Shown here: in pieces, positions 35,922 through 56,849 of the stretch
How the letters are laid out: each line of letters opens with the position of its first letter
Numbering within the stretch: the first letter of the stretch is position 1
DNA from: Candidatus Dormiibacterota bacterium
GTDB taxonomy: Bacteria > Chloroflexota > Dormibacteria > Dormibacterales > Dormibacteraceae
NCBI GenBank assembly: GCA_003151935.1
Contig: PLYZ01000067.1
Coordinates: 33,784-97,783, forward strand
Length of the DNA stretch: 64,000 nt
Reading direction: 5' to 3'
Notes under the pieces: generated by a model
Database searches by the model: none
What the model was told of the DNA's origin: nothing
What the model saw: only the letters and a program-made list of their open reading frames with translations
Translations under genes and position numbers: made by a program

Positions 35922-37105
35922 GCTGACTGCGCAACCTCCTGCCGCGTCTCGACGAATGCGGTGACCGCGCGTTCGAGATCGGCTTTCGAGTGCGCGGCCG
36001 AGACCTGCGTCCTGATCCGGGCCTTGCCTTGCGGCACCACCGGATACGAGAAGCTGACCACGTACACGCCTTTTTCGAGCATGACCTGGGCTATGCGGGC
36101 GGCCAGTGTCGCGTCGCCGACCATGACGGGCACGATCGGGTGGTCGCCGGGCAGGATGTCAAAGCCGGCAGCAGTCATCTGCCGGCGGAAATAGACCGTG
36201 TTGTCGCGCAATCGCTGACGGAGCTCGCCGGCCGTCCGGATCAGCTCCAGCACCTTCAGGCTCCCGGCGACGATCGCAGGCGCCACCGAGTTGGAGAAGA
36301 GGTAAGGACGCGAGCGCTGCCGGAGCATGGCAACCAGCTCCTTGCGTCCGGAGATGTAGCCGCCGCTCGCGCCGCCAAGCGCCTTGCCGAGCGTCCCGCT
36401 GATCGCATCGATCCTGCCCATGACGCCGTGGTGCTCGTGGGTGCCGCGCCCACCCGCACCCATGAATCCGACGGCATGCGAGTCGTCGATCATGACGAGC
36501 GCGTCATGGCGCTCGGCGAGCTCGCAGATCTCGGGTAGGGGCGCCAGGTACCCGTCCATCGAGAAAACCCCGTCCGTGACCACCATCCGGAAACGCGCTC
36601 CCGCGCTGTCCACGAGCTGGCGTTCGAGGTTGTTCATGTCGCGGTTTGCATAGCGCAGGCGCTTGGCCTTGCACAGCCGGATCCCGTCGATGATGCTCGC
36701 GTGATTGAGCGTGTCCGAGATCACCGCGTCGCGTTCGTCGAGGAGAGCCTCGAAGATCCCTCCGTTGGCGTCGAAGCAGGATGAATAGAGGATGGTGTCC
36801 TCGGTGCCCAGGAAATCCGTGAGCGCGGCCTCGAGCTTCTTGTGGATCTCCTGCGTGCCGCAGATGAACCGAACCGAGGCCATGCCGTAGCCCCAGCGAT
36901 CCAGGGCCTCTTTTGCCGCCGCGACGATGTCCGGGTGGTCGGCCAGCCCAAGGTAGTTGTTGGCGCAGAGGTTGAGGACGTCGTGGTCGAGCACGCTGAC
37001 GACCGAGCCCTGCGGTCCCATCAGCACGCGCTCCTGTTTCTCCAACCCCGCGCTGCGGATCTCATCGAGCTGGCTCACCAAGTGCGCTTGCATTTTTTTG
37101 AACAT
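35918..37105 (-). CDS. kbl: Glycine C-acetyltransferase (2-amino-3-ketobutyrate CoA ligase)
   Basis: 395-aa alpha-oxoamine synthase pattern (NNYLGL..., [17 protein letters not shown]). Directly downstream of tdh. Confidence 0.9.
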
Positions 37106-51936: not shown

Positions 51937-53331
51937 ATGTCAGAGGTGTCCGCACACCCATCAGCCGAAGACGGCCCGAGGGAGATCGGGAAGGCCACCT
52001 CGGGCCGTCGCGGGCGCCGCCGGGGCATCGAGATCAAGCCCGGCACGGTCAAGCAAGCGAGATCTGACGCCGGCCTCAGCCTGGCCCAGGTCGCGGGCGG
52101 CGAGATCAGCCGCACCGCGATTTATTTCGTCGAGACCGGGAAGGCCAAGCCCTCGATGGAGACCCTGAAGCTCATCGCCGAGCGGACGGGGCGGCCTATG
52201 GACTACTTCCTCAGCAGGCCCAGCACGATGGAACCTCGTTCCACGGCAGGAACCGCCGAGATCGAACGGCTGATCACCGTCGGGGACTCGGTCGCGGCTC
52301 TTGCCTCGGGGGAAGCTCTTCTAGTCGCCGAGCGAGACCCTGACACTCGCGCCCAGATCAAGTTCCTGATGGCGACCGCGCACCTTCGGCTCGCTCAGTG
52401 GGTGCAGGCGCGCCGCCTGGCTTCGACCGCGAGGGCGCATTTCGAATCGGCGGGAGACCTGCTCATGACGGCCGAGTGTCTGGGCAGCGAGGCCTCGGCG
52501 GCGTACATGATGCAGGACCCGGGCGCGCTCGCCCTTGCTGAAGGGGCCGTGGCCACATGCCGATCGCTGAATCCGGTTCCGCAAATTACGGAGAGCCGCC
52601 TCCTGGGCATCCTTGCCGCGGTACATACGGTCAACCACAGCTGGCAGGCGGCGATCGACACCTATGAGCTGGCGATCGCGGCCGCGGACGTGGTTCAGGA
52701 CCTGCGCCGGCTGTCGATCATTTACACCGGGCTGAGCTGGGCGTACCAGGAGACCGGCCAGCTCGGCCTGTCGGCGCAATACGCTCGAAAGGCCATCGTC
52801 TTACACGAGACGCTCAACGATCGGCTGTCGCTCGCTCGCTCTGAAAACAACCTGGGGTTGCTGCTGCTTCGACAAGGGAACCCGGTCGACGCGCGAAGAC
52901 ACATTGAAAGGTCAATCAGCTTGTTTGACGACGCTGGCGTAGAAGCCGGGAAGGCGGGCGTCATCCTCAGCCTGAGTGAGCTGGAGCTCGGCGAGTCGAA
53001 TCCAGGGGAGGCGGCCCGATTCGCGAACCAGGCCCTCGAGCTGGCCGGCAGGCTCTCGGAGGACCCCTCGGTTGCCGACGCGCACGTCTGGCTGGGCCTG
53101 ATCGCGGAGGCGCGTGGCGAAGAGGCCACGGCGGATGGCGAGTTTGCGGCCGCTTTCGAAGTTTTGGAGAGACCAGACATGACACCGGACAGGGCAAGTC
53201 GCAGCCACGCCCGCTATGCGGAGATCCTCGAGGCCCGGGGTGACATCGTGGGCGCCGTCCGGCATCTCAAGCGCGCGCTCGCGGCCCGCTCGCAACAGCG
53301 CGCGATCGAAGCCAGGTCAGCCACCGCCTGA
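51937..53331 (+). CDS. XRE-family HTH + TPR-repeat regulator
   Basis: The N-terminal VKQARSDAGLSLAQVAGGEISRTAIYFVETGKAKPSMETLKLIAERTG is an XRE-type HTH. The remaining ~370 aa are repeated helical hairpins (e.g. NLGLLLLRQGNPVDARRHIERSISLF). Confidence 0.85.
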   Translation: MSEVSAHPSAEDGPREIGKATSGRRGRRRGIEIKPGTVKQARSDAGLSLAQVAGGEISRTAIYFVETGKAKPSMETLKLIAERTGRPMDYFLSRPSTMEPRSTAGTAEIERLITVGDSVAALASGEALLVAERDPDTRAQIKFLMATAHLRLAQWVQARRLASTARAHFESAGDLLMTAECLGSEASAAYMMQDPGALALAEGAVATCRSLNPVPQITESRLLGILAAVHTVNHSWQAAIDTYELAIAAADVVQDLRRLSIIYTGLSWAYQETGQLGLSAQYARKAIVLHETLNDRLSLARSENNLGLLLLRQGNPVDARRHIERSISLFDDAGVEAGKAGVILSLSELELGESNPGEAARFANQALELAGRLSEDPSVADAHVWLGLIAEARGEEATADGEFAAAFEVLERPDMTPDRASRSHARYAEILEARGDIVGAVRHLKRALAARSQQRAIEARSATA

Positions 53332-53338
53332 CCTGCGC

Positions 53339-54913
53339 TCAGGCCTGTTGCGCGTACTCCAGGGAATCGACCAGCGCCAGCAGCGAGGCCTCGATGATGT
53401 TGCTCGAGCACCCGACGGTGGTCCAGCGCTTGAGGCCCTTTCCGGATTCGATGAGCACCCGCGTGGTCGCGGCAGTGCCCGCGTCGCCATCAAGGATGCG
53501 CACCTTGTAGTCGTGCAGCGTCACTCCGCGCAGGCCCGGAAACCGCGGGCTGAGCGCTTTCCGGAGTGCCGCGTCGAGCGCGTTGACGGGGCCATTCCCG
53601 GCCGCGGCGGTGTGATAGACGGTGCCGGCGACCTCGACCTGCACGGTTGCCTCGGCGTTGACCGAGTCGCCGTTCTTGCGGACGTTCGTCGTGAAGTCGG
53701 CCACGGTCCAGGGGGCTTTGTAGCCCGGCTGCAGCCGTCGAACCAGCATCTCGAAGGACGCGTCCGCGGCCTCGTAGGAATAGCCGCGATGCTCGAGCTC
53801 TTTGAGGTGCTGCACCAGCCACCTGGTCTGGGGGTCGTCCCGGTCGAGCTCCAGCCCGAACTCTCGCGCCTTGGCGAGCACATTGCCGCGACCTGACAGC
53901 TCCGAGACGAGCACCCGGGCCTCGTTGCCGACGAGGGCCGGGTCGATGTGCTGGTATGAGTCCTTGTGCCGCAGGACAGCAGCGACGTGCTGTCCTCCCT
54001 TGTGTGCGAAGGCGCCGTGGCCGACAAACGGCTGCTGCAGCGGCAGGGCCAGGTTTGCGATCTCGGCCACCGTGCGAGACAGCTCGGTGAAACGCGCGAT
54101 CGAGGCCCCGGGCAGGGCTTCCACGCCGAGCTTCAGAACGAGGTTCGCCACCACCGAGACCAGGTTCGCGTTGCCGCAGCGTTCGCCGTATCCGTTGATG
54201 GTGCCCTGGACCATATCGGCTCCGGCCTGCACACCCTCGAGCGAGTTGGCCACGGCGAGCTCGCAATCGTTGTGCGTGTGGATTCCGACGCGAACCGGAC
54301 GATCGAGGTCGGAGAGCGCGCCGCGCACCGCCTCCACGCCGCGCCTGATCTCGGCCGGCAGGCTGCCTCCGTTGGTGTCGCACAGGACGACCCATGTCGC
54401 ACCGGCGCGGGCGGCGGCCAGGCAGACCTCGAGCGCGTACTCGGAATCCCGGGCGAAACCGTCGAAGAAGTGCTCAGCATCGAAGATCAGCTCCCGGCCA
54501 AGGCCCACGCCGTAAGCGACGGATTCCTCAACCATGGCCAGGTTTTCGTTGGGCGTGGTCTGCAGCACGGTGGTGACCTGCCACGGGTCGCTCTTACCGA
54601 CCAGGGTCCACACCGGCGCCGCACTCTGGGTGAGAGCGAGCAGGTTGGCGTCGTCCTCACAGCGGCCGTTGGCGCGCCGTGTCGCCCCGAACGCCGCGAG
54701 CTTCGCCCGTTTCAGGGGACGCTGGCGCAGGCTGGCGAACAGCTCCTCGTCCTTGGGGTTCGATCCCGGGAATCCGCCCTCCACGTAATCGAAGCCGAGA
54801 CCGTCCAGGGCGCGGGCAATGCGCACCTTGTCGGCGGCCGAGAAGGACACGGCCGGACCCTGAGCCCCGTCGCGCAGCGTCGTGTCGTAGATGACGATCC
54901 GCCGATTGGACAT
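53339..54913 (-). CDS. cimA: Citramalate synthase-type enzyme (LeuA_rel / CimA family)
   Basis: IVIYDTTLRDGAQGPAVSFSAADKVRIARALDGLGFDYVEGGFPGSNPKDEELF... plus the long C-terminal regulatory domain typical of the CimA clade. ATG 54913 is preceded by GGGAGG. Confidence 0.8.
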   Translation of the reverse strand: MSNRRIVIYDTTLRDGAQGPAVSFSAADKVRIARALDGLGFDYVEGGFPGSNPKDEELFASLRQRPLKRAKLAAFGATRRANGRCEDDANLLALTQSAAPVWTLVGKSDPWQVTTVLQTTPNENLAMVEESVAYGVGLGRELIFDAEHFFDGFARDSEYALEVCLAAARAGATWVVLCDTNGGSLPAEIRRGVEAVRGALSDLDRPVRVGIHTHNDCELAVANSLEGVQAGADMVQGTINGYGERCGNANLVSVVANLVLKLGVEALPGASIARFTELSRTVAEIANLALPLQQPFVGHGAFAHKGGQHVAAVLRHKDSYQHIDPALVGNEARVLVSELSGRGNVLAKAREFGLELDRDDPQTRWLVQHLKELEHRGYSYEAADASFEMLVRRLQPGYKAPWTVADFTTNVRKNGDSVNAEATVQVEVAGTVYHTAAAGNGPVNALDAALRKALSPRFPGLRGVTLHDYKVRILDGDAGTAATTRVLIESGKGLKRWTTVGCSSNIIEASLLALVDSLEYAQQA

Positions 54914-54944
54914 AAAAAAACCTCCCGACCCTGTTGCCGGGAGG
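54914..54944 (-). terminator. Intrinsic terminator/attenuator hairpin immediately 5' of the cimA start codon
   Basis: The minus-strand RNA CCUCCCGG-CAACAGG-GUCGGGAGG is followed by UUUUUUU and then AUG. The 3' arm contains the cimA Shine-Dalgarno. Confidence 0.7.
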
Positions 54945-54967
54945 TCCAACGACTCGAGCGACGTGCG

Positions 54968-55024
54968 CTAAGTCGGGGGACCTCCCCGGATAATCTCGAT
55001 CGCGATCGCAATCCAGCTACGCAT
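54968..55024 (-). CDS. Ile-rich leader peptide MRSWIAIAIEIIRGGPPT
   Basis: 18 codons with five Ile among residues 5-12. The stop lies 23 nt before the terminator stem. The coding region contains CCGGGGAGG, which can pair with the terminator 5' arm. Confidence 0.55.
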   Translation of the reverse strand: MRSWIAIAIEIIRGGPPT

Positions 55025-55092
55025 CGCTTCGAAGGCTAGACGATCTGACCCACGAGGAGTATGGAGTCCGGCACCAAATCCCGGCCAAGCGA

Positions 55093-55908
55093 TTAGTGGG
55101 AGGCGGACACCTCGCGAGTTCTCACCTGCACCTCCATGGTGCCGGTGGCCGATCCCACGTAGATGCCGCGAGTCGGCGCGGCGTCGCTGTAGTCCCGGCC
55201 CACGGCGAGCCGGACGTGATGCTCCGCGGCGCGTACGGGATGGGTGGCGTCGTAGCCGATCCATCCGCGTCCCGGCACCCAGGCCTCGGCCCAGGCGTGT
55301 GAGGCGGTCGTGGCTGCCCCAGCCGCGTGGATGTAGCCGCTCACGTATCGCGCCGGCACGCCCATCGACCGCGCGACCGCGATGAAAAGATGCGCGAAGT
55401 CCTGGCACACGCCCGCCCGCAGGGCGAGGACCTCGTCCACAGCGCTGTACACGTTGGTCACGGCCCGGTCGTAGGTGAACTCCCGGCTGATGGCGAGCGT
55501 CAGCTCGTCGAGCGCCTGCTCCACGGAGGGGCCGGAGCTCCGCTCGGCGATCGGATGACGGCTCGCCAGCTCCCGGATCCCGGGCGCGTCCTTCACCGGC
55601 GAGCGGAACCGCAGGAAGTCATGCACCAGGTCCTCTCCCGGGTTGACGTCGAGCACGCCGCCCGTCTCGACGACCGACCTGCTGGTCACGCTCAAGCTCG
55701 TGTGGGGGCGCACGAGGTTGAAGTAGTGGACGCTGTTTCCGTAACCGTCGAGGTAGGCGCCCGGCTGGATCCCCGAGCTGATCTCGAGGTCGAACTCAAG
55801 GCAGCGCTGTCCGTTGCCATCCATCGGTCGCAGGCGCACCTCCATCACGGTCTCCGCGATCGGGCCCGAATATCGGTACCGGGTGGTGTGCACGATCTCC
55901 AGCCTCAT
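55093..55908 (-). CDS. Transglutaminase-like cysteine peptidase family protein (Bact_transglu_N + Transglut_core)
   Basis: MRLEIVHTTRYRYSGP... N-domain and GVCQDFAHLFIAVARSMGVPARYVSGY...SHAWAEAW...YDATH catalytic C/H/D pattern. ATG 55908 overlaps the upstream stop. Confidence 0.85.
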   Translation of the reverse strand: MRLEIVHTTRYRYSGPIAETVMEVRLRPMDGNGQRCLEFDLEISSGIQPGAYLDGYGNSVHYFNLVRPHTSLSVTSRSVVETGGVLDVNPGEDLVHDFLRFRSPVKDAPGIRELASRHPIAERSSGPSVEQALDELTLAISREFTYDRAVTNVYSAVDEVLALRAGVCQDFAHLFIAVARSMGVPARYVSGYIHAAGAATTASHAWAEAWVPGRGWIGYDATHPVRAAEHHVRLAVGRDYSDAAPTRGIYVGSATGTMEVQVRTREVSASH

Positions 55909-56849
55909 TGCTGCTGCGGCATGGCGCGCCCCTCGTCGCCGATCACGTTGGCGGGGACCTTGCTCGGGTGGAAGTAGGTCTCCCTCATGGCAAGCTCGAG
56001 CTGCCGCAGCACGCCCCGGCATTCCGTTTCGAATTCGCGTGGGTGCTCGGCGACCATCTGGGTGGCTGCTCCGTTGAACATCGTGTGCAGCAGCGACAGC
56101 AGGCGCCGGGGCTTTGAGCGGCGGCCCGGGCCGTCGATCCTCGAGACCGAGTCCAGGGCGATCTGAGCCGAGAAGCGGGCGGATCGCGGCAACGCAGGTT
56201 CGAAGAGCAGGAAGTCGATGATCCTCTCCGCCGTCACGCCGCCCGAGTGGCGGGCCTGGTAAGACTCGTATGCGAAGCAGGACTTCAGCACGGCCGACCA
56301 CTCGAGGGTGTCCTCCGGCGCTTCGGTCAGCTCGGCCGACTTTCGCGTGACGAGGGTGGTGACATTCGCGGTGCGCTCGACGAACTTGCCGAGGCGGACG
56401 AAGTCGCGCGCCTCGTCGTGCTGCATCGTGTCTTCGAGCAGGCCGTCGACGAGCCTGACGCTCAGCTGCACGTCGTTGAGAAAGGGAAACAGGTCGGGCT
56501 GCCAGGTTGGGCCCTGGATGCGCCAGTGCAGCGCGTTGACCTGCTCATACAGCTCCGTGGGGAGCGAGGGGCGCACCGCCTGTGCGGCGATTCGGGCGGC
56601 GGCGACGCTCGATCGCACCGAGGGGCCCAGCGTGCCGGTGATCAACACCTCGACGGCCTCGGCCCGGCCGCTGGGGGTGCTGCCCGCCCAGCCGGCCAGC
56701 TCCATGAAGCGCGCCCAGAACTCCGGTCCTGGCTCATCAGTGCGGTCGAGGGAGAGCGACACATGCACGCCCAGGATGCGGGCGAGATGGTCGGCCCGTT
56801 CGAGGTGCCGGCCGAGCAGCGTGAGCGAGGTGGCGGCCCGGCTAAGCAT
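55905..56849 (-). CDS. Alpha-E domain protein (DUF403)
   Basis: MLSRAATSLTLLGRHLERADHLARIL... is the typical alpha-E N-terminus. ATG 56849 overlaps the ATP-grasp stop by 8 nt. Confidence 0.8.
   Translation of the reverse strand: MLSRAATSLTLLGRHLERADHLARILGVHVSLSLDRTDEPGPEFWARFMELAGWAGSTPSGRAEAVEVLITGTLGPSVRSSVAAARIAAQAVRPSLPTELYEQVNALHWRIQGPTWQPDLFPFLNDVQLSVRLVDGLLEDTMQHDEARDFVRLGKFVERTANVTTLVTRKSAELTEAPEDTLEWSAVLKSCFAYESYQARHSGGVTAERIIDFLLFEPALPRSARFSAQIALDSVSRIDGPGRRSKPRRLLSLLHTMFNGAATQMVAEHPREFETECRGVLRQLELAMRETYFHPSKVPANVIGDEGRAMPQQQ

Follow-up and report, generated by a model that had tools for sequence, protein, structure and literature searches.

The citramalate synthase gene cimA of a Candidatus Dormiibacterota bacterium lies on the minus strand of a 64,000-nucleotide (nt) stretch of contig PLYZ01000067.1 (positions 33,784 to 97,783), which was analysed over its full length and is called the window here. 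In this study, we found that the leader of this gene is probably an isoleucine-responsive, ribosome-mediated attenuator in Candidatus Dormibacterota; we put the probability of this reading, which rests on sequence comparison and modelled folds, at about 0.75. A short open reading frame (ORF), a cluster of Ile codons, an intrinsic terminator and both of the alternative pairings are present in the leader sequence and conserved. From these features we infer where transcription starts, that the mini-ORF is translated, how ribosome and polymerase are timed relative to each other, and that the leader responds to isoleucine. A preliminary description, made from the letters of the window alone, had proposed an Ile-sensing attenuator at this place, and the comparative and thermodynamic evidence supports that proposal as far as computation goes.

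The spacer between the upstream transglutaminase-like gene (stop at 55093) and cimA covers 55092-54914 on the minus strand, 179 nt in all. The features that carry the reading are as follows (positions in the window).

55024-54968, minus strand: leader ORF, 18 codons plus TAG, encoding MRSWIAIAIEIIRGGPPT
55024-55022, minus strand: leader ORF start codon, ATG
55012-54989, minus strand: putative regulatory Ile codons (ATT 55012, ATC 55006, ATC 55000, ATT 54994, ATC 54991)
54970-54968, minus strand: leader ORF stop codon, TAG
54947-54914, minus strand: predicted intrinsic terminator; stem 54947-54918, 5' arm GGACCUCCCGGC, 3' arm GGUCGGGAGGUUU, run of seven U (U7) at 54920-54914
54926-54921, minus strand: Shine-Dalgarno (SD) sequence of cimA, GGGAGG, within the terminator 3' arm and 7 nt 5' of the ATG
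53339-54913, minus strand: cimA, citramalate synthase, 524 aa; its ATG (54913) lies directly 3' of U7

The leader ORF reads ATG CGT AGC TGG ATT GCG ATC GCG ATC GAG ATT ATC CGG GGA GGT CCC CCG ACT TAG, and Ile occupies residues 5, 7, 9, 11 and 12 of the peptide. As a caveat, the frame stays open upstream to 55408; the ATG at 55024 is the earliest start codon in this frame past the stop of the upstream gene. The CCTCCCGG hairpin begins 23 nt past the leader stop. Its full stem, GGACCTCCCGGC paired with GGTCGGGAGGTTT, has 12 pairs, is GC-rich, closes a 6-nt loop (AACAGG) and has a predicted energy of -20.5 kcal/mol. A terminator scan returned a single site in the region; its stem has 12 pairs, its loop is 6 nt long and its tail is T-rich. 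The preliminary description was correct in every sequence detail on the minus strand, namely the mini-ORF at 55024-54968 with five Ile in residues 5-12, the hairpin 23 nt after its stop, U7 followed at once by the cimA AUG, and the SD sequence GGGAGG in the 3' arm. It had also named the gene as cimA, and the product scored 648.6 bits against the TIGR00977 citramalate synthase model (cut-off 450). The same product fell far under every cut-off of the 2-isopropylmalate synthase models. Homologues of this CimA carry the HMGL-like, HCS_D2 and LeuA_dimer domains.

We compared the Ile cluster and the U-run with chance expectation. Among 111,510 stop-free 8-codon stretches in the six frames of the whole 64-kb window, only two had at least five Ile, and both lay at the cimA leader, one in the sense and one in the antisense direction. 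When the 179-nt leader was shuffled 50,000 times with its dinucleotides preserved, not one shuffle yielded a closed small ORF in which 5 of 8 codons encode Ile (0/50,000), and 27 shuffles reached 4 of 8. The Ile cluster is thus not a product of chance, and its enrichment is far beyond it. The antisense frame of the leader (54984 onward, plus strand) is also Ile-rich (PRIISIAIAI...), the ATCGCGATCGCGAT repeats being partly palindromic; it belongs to a shadow ORF on the strand opposite cimA, and we attach no meaning to it. Runs of at least seven T occur twice in the window when both strands are counted, and the run in the cimA leader alone has a hairpin before it. The other run, at 37093-37099 on the plus strand, is not preceded by a stable hairpin, and weaker candidates of a hairpin followed by U were seen at 44788-44784 and 15305-15301, both on the minus strand. 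Canonical hairpin-plus-U terminators appear to be rare in this genome, and against a window GC content of 66% the hairpin with U7 is exceptional.

Conservation was examined in related leaders. A metagenome scan gave eight loci whose CimA is 80-85% identical, and look-ups of eight CimA homologues gave thirteen further loci, several with the same leader sequence. The resulting comparison set, alignment A1, holds 17 distinct leaders of Candidatus Dormibacterota, that of the window among them (CimA 80-96% identical). Many CimA homologues that are 85-96% identical were present in a large protein collection, and several of them are named Candidatus Dormibacteraeota, Dormibacteraceae or Dormiibacterota. 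Every one of the 17 leaders contains a small ORF, 17-26 codons long. Its start codon (ATG in 14, GTG in 3) falls in one alignment column in 16 leaders and farther upstream in locus L082; L170 closes the ORF with TAA and the other 16 leaders with TAG. The whole set shares the block CCGGGGAGGTCCCCCGACTTAG, a middle hairpin and the terminator. T7 is followed immediately by the cimA ATG in every leader, including L082, L085 and L167, where the N-terminus of CimA is longer. U7 and most columns of the terminator stem are invariant, and the cimA SD motif is (G/U/C)GGAGG in all 17.

The way in which the leaders vary points to a translated frame. Indels within the leader ORF are of 3, 9 or 12 nt only. 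Outside it, before the start and after the stop, they are of 1-5 nt (2-5 nt just upstream of the start), and in the middle hairpin and the terminator loop they are of arbitrary length. Counted back from the stop, Ile stands at position -8 in 17/17 leaders, at -10 in 17/17, at -12 in 14/17 and at -14 in 9/17, as in the peptides MRRLRRIGIAIEICRGGPPT, MHSAIAIGIGIVIRRGGPPI, MSKQPTIIGIGIAIRRGGSPT, MRKQIANEIEITWGGSPT and MPIRHGIRIAIEIRRGGPPT. Variation is found at the N-terminus and at the positions that separate the Ile residues. The third position of the Ile codons alternates between T and C among leaders, and the neighbouring codons change at all three positions (GCG, GGA, GGC, GGG, CCC, GAG). 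This codon-level pattern in the alignment is the signature of a translated frame. The preliminary description had suggested a comparison of orthologous leaders for Ile runs, and such a comparison shows that both the ORF and its I-x-I-x-I spacing were kept in the 17 distinct leaders.

Ile makes up 66 of the 327 residues of the leader peptides (20%), compared with 4.7% in the likely genes of the window; Val occurs 5 times and Leu twice. Judged by this composition, the signal is specific to isoleucine. CimA feeds isoleucine synthesis only, and leader peptides built on Ile alone suit CimA for that reason. The Ile codon at -8 (54992-54994 in the window) is always ATT in the 17 leaders, compared with 7% ATT and 89% ATC among the Ile codons of the likely genes of the window; this invariance may reflect an RNA-pairing constraint or selection for slow decoding. 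A role for Pro-Pro stalling at the conserved GGPPT end of the peptide was also considered and is not required, because three leaders have GGSPT.

A covariance model, R1, was derived from the 17 leaders; within the window it matched once, with 128 bits. Searched against 152 distant cimA loci, R1 gave no match except a weak one in the planctomycete locus L045 (E 0.2). The leader was also absent from L001, the closest species-representative genome, in which CimA is 64% identical. The family is therefore confined to relatives whose CimA is at least 80% identical.

The alternative structures of the leader, which the preliminary description had proposed to fold, were predicted to form two mutually exclusive folds. 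Three elements take part in addition to the terminator.

54989-54978, minus strand: antiterminator 5' strand CCGGGGAGGUCC, from the last base of codon 12 through codon 16, inside the leader ORF
54974-54988, minus strand: conserved local hairpin CGGGG-AGGUC-CCCCG, -9.6 kcal/mol
54950-54975, minus strand: middle hairpin CGACUUAGCG-CACGU-CGCUCGAGUCG, -11.3 kcal/mol, holding the leader stop codon and enclosed by the antiterminator

In the antiterminator, 11 bp with a single bulged G join CCGGGGAGGUCC to the terminator 5' arm GGACCUCCCGG, and the whole has a predicted energy of -33.3 kcal/mol including the enclosed middle hairpin. The antiterminator of the preliminary description was thus recovered by folding and proved longer than stated there, and the fold-back on UCCCCCG that it had described corresponds to the local hairpin of -9.6 kcal/mol. 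This hairpin is predicted to sequester the antiterminator strand if no ribosome or partner is present. The middle hairpin belongs to the consensus structure; one of its pairs shows a compensatory change, and several pairs changed on one side only. When growing transcripts were folded from the leader AUG onward, the minimum-energy fold was the local hairpin at 46-80 nt, the antiterminator at 82-102 nt and the terminator state from 104 nt. For the full leader the antiterminator state had -44.4 and the terminator state -50.3 kcal/mol. The model thus describes the arrangement of a kinetic switch, in which the antiterminator can form earlier and the terminator is more stable at equilibrium. An alternative antiterminator drawn by hand, GGUCCCCCGAC with the terminator 3' arm, never appeared in the minimum-energy series; the adjacent 5' arm would outcompete it kinetically.

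The effect of a ribosome was modelled codon by codon, by masking a footprint from -15 to +12 nt around the A-site in a transcript cut just 5' of the terminator 3' arm. The probability that the terminator 5' arm is engaged in the antiterminator was 0.82-0.90 without a ribosome or with one at codons 1-8. It was 0.75 with the ribosome at I9, 0.58 at E10 and 0.29 at I11, and it did not exceed 0.05 from I12 to the stop. The same step was obtained in 17/17 leaders. Because the step falls there, the conserved alternating Ile codons stand at the upstream side of the masking boundary. A ribosome at I11 or I12 would cover the antiterminator strand, so the effective stall sites would be the earlier Ile codons. 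Of the five Ile codons noted in the preliminary description, I5, I7 and I9 are predicted to be productive stall sites under ribosome masking, and a ribosome at I11 or I12 is predicted to mask the antiterminator.

Upstream of the leader ORF, two further conserved features were seen in the alignment.

55033-55038, minus strand: candidate -10 element TAGCCT, a conserved TAnnnT box located 8 nt 5' of the leader ATG (A1 columns 80-85)
55059-55078, minus strand: conserved dyad-like motif TTTGG-N9-CCATAC, about 35-55 nt before the leader start codon (A1 columns 41-59)

The TAnnnT box was recognised in alignment A1, not by the promoter scan. It is present in all 16 leaders that reach far enough upstream, 5-12 nt (mostly 8-10) before the start codon, in the variants TAGCCT, TAGGCT, TACCCT, TAGTGT, TACTCT and TAGACT, with T1, A2 and T6 invariant or nearly so. 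As a -10 element it would probably place the mini-ORF at the 5' end of the transcript or a few nt from it, making the ORF leaderless or near-leaderless. The attenuated RNA would then be about 111-118 nt long, which on that condition replaces the terminated transcript of about 150 nt expected in the preliminary description. In the dyad-like motif the N9 spacing is constant and the spacer sequence variable, and no consensus RNA structure was predicted there from the alignment of leaders; possible roles are those of an operator, an activator site or an unusual promoter element.

From these data the following mechanism can be proposed. Transcription would begin shortly upstream of the leader ATG, as the conserved TAnnnT box suggests, and a ribosome would translate the 18-codon leader as RNA polymerase proceeds. 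With plentiful Ile-tRNA, the ribosome would reach codons 12-19 and cover CCGGGGAGGUCC, the terminator 5' arm would be left free to pair with the 3' arm, and transcription would end at U7; in transcripts that escape termination, the SD sequence would still be locked in the terminator hairpin. With scarce Ile-tRNA, the ribosome of the window's leader would stall at I5, I7 or I9, CCGGGGAGGUCC would pair with GGACCUCCCGG over 11 bp around the middle hairpin, and the terminator would be blocked. Polymerase would then read through, and the SD and AUG of cimA would be single-stranded. After ribosome release, the CGGGG/CCCCG local hairpin would recapture the antiterminator strand. Control would probably act on both transcription and translation.

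Several results weigh against this mechanism. No SD sequence precedes the mini-ORF in any of the 17 leaders, which extends to the whole set a remark that the preliminary description had made for the window, and a scan of 54500-55600 detected no sigma-70 consensus promoter. If the TAnnnT box is the -10 element, the missing SD would be explained by a transcript that starts at the mini-ORF or very close to it; translation of the mini-ORF would accordingly depend on a leaderless or near-leaderless start deduced from the alignment. No significant covariation was detected in the terminator or the antiterminator state across the 17 leaders. In the antiterminator state 94% of cells pair across the 17 sequences and in the terminator state 91%, values that shuffles reach as well. 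Since the stems are nearly invariant, covariation is uninformative here and speaks neither for nor against the folds. The pairings are better described as a conserved potential than as proven structure, and what supports them is thermodynamic prediction together with the conservation of ORF features. A stall at the invariant Ile -8 would, in the masking model, cover most of the antiterminator strand (probability about 0.3), and only 2-4 Ile codons per leader are predicted to be productively placed. Without a ribosome, the equilibrium model predicts read-through and not the super-attenuation of the classical trp model; in the modelled folds the logic is not identical to textbook attenuation. 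Finally, a cautionary precedent is reported from Streptomyces coelicolor, where mutation of the ilvB and leuA leaders, which look like attenuators, did not reveal the behaviour of classical attenuators (PMC1262725).

Other explanations of the same leader were weighed. The folds might be switched by a trans-acting factor, such as a TRAP-like protein on spaced GAU/AUC triplets, some other protein that binds RNA, or a small ligand, with the ORF being incidental. An RNA element of this kind would fit the nucleotide-level conservation from CCGGGGAGG to the terminator, the 6-nt periodic repeat AUY-NNN-AUY-NNN-AUU directly 5' of the antiterminator strand, which resembles the geometry of a triplet-repeat protein site, and a mini-ORF that has no SD. 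However, it would leave unexplained the conserved start column and stop (TAG replaced by TAA in L170), the multiple-of-three indels limited to the interval between start and stop, and the T/C variation at the third position of the Ile codons. The triplets number just 3-6, no Rfam riboswitch or protein-binding leader matched at E values up to 10, and no conserved structure was predicted 5' of the switch. We consider a trans-acting factor quite unlikely. Purely translational control, in which the hairpin masks the SD only, U7 serves as a spacer or S1-binding enhancer, nothing terminates, and leader translation or stalling opens the SD, has about the same small likelihood. It gains from the position of the SD in the 3' arm and of the AUG directly after U7 in 17/17 leaders, from translational SD-sequestering leaders described in related high-GC Actinobacteria (PMC1262725), and from the rarity of canonical intrinsic terminators in the genome, by which hairpin-dependent termination may be inefficient in this organism. 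Against it, a 12-bp GC-rich stem followed immediately by seven U is a canonical intrinsic terminator and the best in the window, and T7 is invariant despite the 66% GC background. Translational control is a sub-variant of the attenuator reading and not its opposite, and both levels probably operate.

The hairpin might also merely terminate the upstream co-directional gene (55093-56301), with the Ile-rich ORF being an accidental feature of the spacer. In the window, L170 and L171 that gene, which is transglutaminase-like, does share the strand of cimA, and it ends 179-181 nt before it. In other contigs, however, the identical leader precedes cimA behind a divergent gene, an ACT/DUF5612 gene in L162, L172 and L173 and a MIP channel gene in L161, L163, L167 and L168, and it accompanies cimA in all of these contexts. 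Since the upstream gene varies, the hairpin and U7 are not its terminator. There is also no space for a cimA promoter between U7 and the cimA ATG, and an Ile run that is beyond chance and conserved does not fit an accidental spacer. The comparative data contradict the reading, which we regard as extremely improbable, and the hairpin with U7 is inside the cimA transcription unit.

The surroundings of the leader gave further observations. In the window and in L170, the transglutaminase-like gene ends (...VSASH*) in a block TGTCnGC-N5-CACTAA (55093-55110, minus strand; A1 columns 8-25). This block can still be made out before cimA where a divergent ACT or MIP gene replaces the transglutaminase-like gene, and it could be left over from the end of the ancestral gene or have been kept as part of the cimA control region. 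Downstream of cimA, the window has a convergent HTH-TPR gene (51937-53331, plus strand). In several Dormibacterota contigs (L161, L163-L168; at about 2770-2830) a phosphoenolpyruvate carboxylase gene (ppc) overlaps the end of cimA by a few bases, and in these contigs the attenuator would govern ppc too.

We also looked at cimA leaders in distant lineages. Ile/Val-rich small ORFs were found 100-300 nt before cimA, followed by terminators of -21 to -22 kcal/mol, in five loci; detection of the terminator arms was clean for L045 alone, and these leaders are therefore given as anatomy. In the Planctomycetota loci L035, L045 and L078, whose leaders are alike among themselves, the ORFs end in ...GVIVVIIGREGP, ...VAVAIIIGEAGA and ...AIVVIIREVGP, respectively. 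A Syntrophaceae metagenome-assembled genome (MAG), L080, has ...TIISIIAIDGIIIGP..., and a Chloroflexota MAG, L004, has MTMHHKASIMIIQLGGTPPS, a peptide that ends in GGTPPS and resembles GGPPT. These five leaders may be independent of that in the window or distantly related to it. A small survey of 148 cimA loci returned 7 forward matches against 4 on the reverse strand, and strong, sensibly placed terminators occurred among the forward matches only. In another Chloroflexota MAG (L014, 2138-2448, plus strand), RF00230 matched before cimA with 36.4 bits and E 1.3e-6, the gathering score being 93. That leader has the GGUGGUACCGCG core, a terminator with a U-run and a probable AUC (Ile) specifier, features by which it is a probable divergent Ile T-box. 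Since other phyla have Ile-rich leaders or a T-box before cimA, control of this gene by Ile at the RNA level would recur across lineages. A wider reading, which we hold only tentatively and think rather less likely to be right than wrong, joins a leaderless default-ON switch of about 111 nt in the window with independent Ile leader peptides before cimA in at least four phyla, alternating with T-boxes. Under that joint reading one hairpin may serve as terminator and SD mask, with efficient leader translation, not stalling, as the active OFF signal, and the phyla may be Dormibacterota, Chloroflexota, Planctomycetota and Desulfobacterota-type Syntrophaceae. If it is true, these leaders form an uncatalogued, widespread class.

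Returning to the attenuator of the window, the regulatory class is known; a leader-peptide attenuator in this under-studied phylum, and on this target gene, would be new. It would extend amino-acid-sensing leader-peptide attenuation to Candidatus Dormibacterota, a soil and permafrost lineage that is almost wholly uncultured, and to the citramalate (pyruvate-derived) route of isoleucine synthesis. Strict Ile specificity at the single committed Ile-only step would be physiological evidence that these bacteria rely on CimA for isoleucine. The design would offer a small, well-defined natural part for Ile-responsive control, with one 12-bp hairpin that would double as terminator and SD mask, a U7 leading straight into the AUG, and no SD ahead of the sensing ORF. 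Similar leaders, or a T-box, before cimA elsewhere would suggest that control of this gene by Ile at the RNA level evolved more than once.

The leader was compared with known RNA families. No Rfam family reached its gathering score anywhere in the window, and at E values up to 10 the region 54600-55400 gave noise only, ncS037 (15 bits against a threshold of 112 bits) and P10. A T-box was rejected, as RF00230 did not match at E up to 10 and both the T-box sequence GGUGGNACCGCG and Stem I are absent from the leader. The element has a short leader ORF, a cluster of cognate Ile codons and an intrinsic terminator before the structural gene, and in silico it has a mutually exclusive antiterminator that depends on ribosome position. 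On these predicted features it has every structural hallmark of leader-peptide attenuation, and its sequence is unrelated to known members. The preliminary description had called the class best known from Proteobacteria; it is documented there and in Actinobacteria and Firmicutes as well (PMC1262725, PMC2965389, PMC5794164, PMC5864092). Its author knew of no attenuator described for cimA, and the literature that we searched likewise yielded no paper on leader-peptide control of cimA or citramalate synthase and no description of a cis-regulatory RNA in Candidatus Dormibacterota.

The closest systems in design are the enterobacterial leaders of ilvGMEDA, ilvBN and thr (for the class, PMC2965389). 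They share with the cimA leader a short ORF rich in codons for the end product, a terminator before the first structural gene, an antiterminator that uses a terminator strand, and a decision made by ribosome position. They have no sequence or Rfam relationship to it, and their codons are mixed Ile/Val/Leu or Thr/Ile, whereas the cimA leader has Ile only, alternating as I-x-I-x-I and not in a run. The cimA leader also lacks a region-1 strand 5' of the antiterminator; that role would fall to a fold-back hairpin on the 3' side, which can be likened to the 1:2 pairing of the trp leader. Unlike in the enterobacterial leaders, the terminator 3' arm contains the SD, U7 abuts the AUG, the mini-ORF has no SD, and the target is cimA, in a different phylum.

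The actinobacterial ilvB leaders and the LEU element of leuA (PMC1262725) likewise come from high-GC Gram-positive-type hosts and have short ORFs with branched-chain codons. In the LEU element the SD of the structural gene joins the pairing, and leuA is a paralogue of cimA. However, the LEU element folds as a pseudoknot, with Leu codons paired to the SD, and has no terminator, whereas the cimA leader has a terminator and an antiterminator, and Ile codons. The actinobacterial leaders have no sequence similarity to it, and in Streptomyces they were not confirmed to function as classical attenuators (PMC1262725). In mycobacteria, leaderless polycysteine short ORFs act as cysteine-responsive attenuators (bioRxiv 10.1101/834739). 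These too are small regulatory ORFs that have no SD and are enriched in the codon for the amino acid of the downstream genes. The cimA mini-ORF differs in having Ile instead of Cys, in its canonical intrinsic terminator, and in that its putative leaderless start is deduced from the TAnnnT box.

Ile T-box leaders have the same gene, the same signal (uncharged tRNA-Ile, or Ile supply) and a terminator immediately before cimA in common with the leader described here. Their sensor is wholly different, the cimA leader of the window having neither a T-box sequence nor Stem I. Ile T-boxes before a cimA-type leuA paralogue in Geobacter were reportedly described by Vitreschak et al. in 2008. On orthologous genes, T-boxes and leader peptides are known to take each other's place (PMC2965389).

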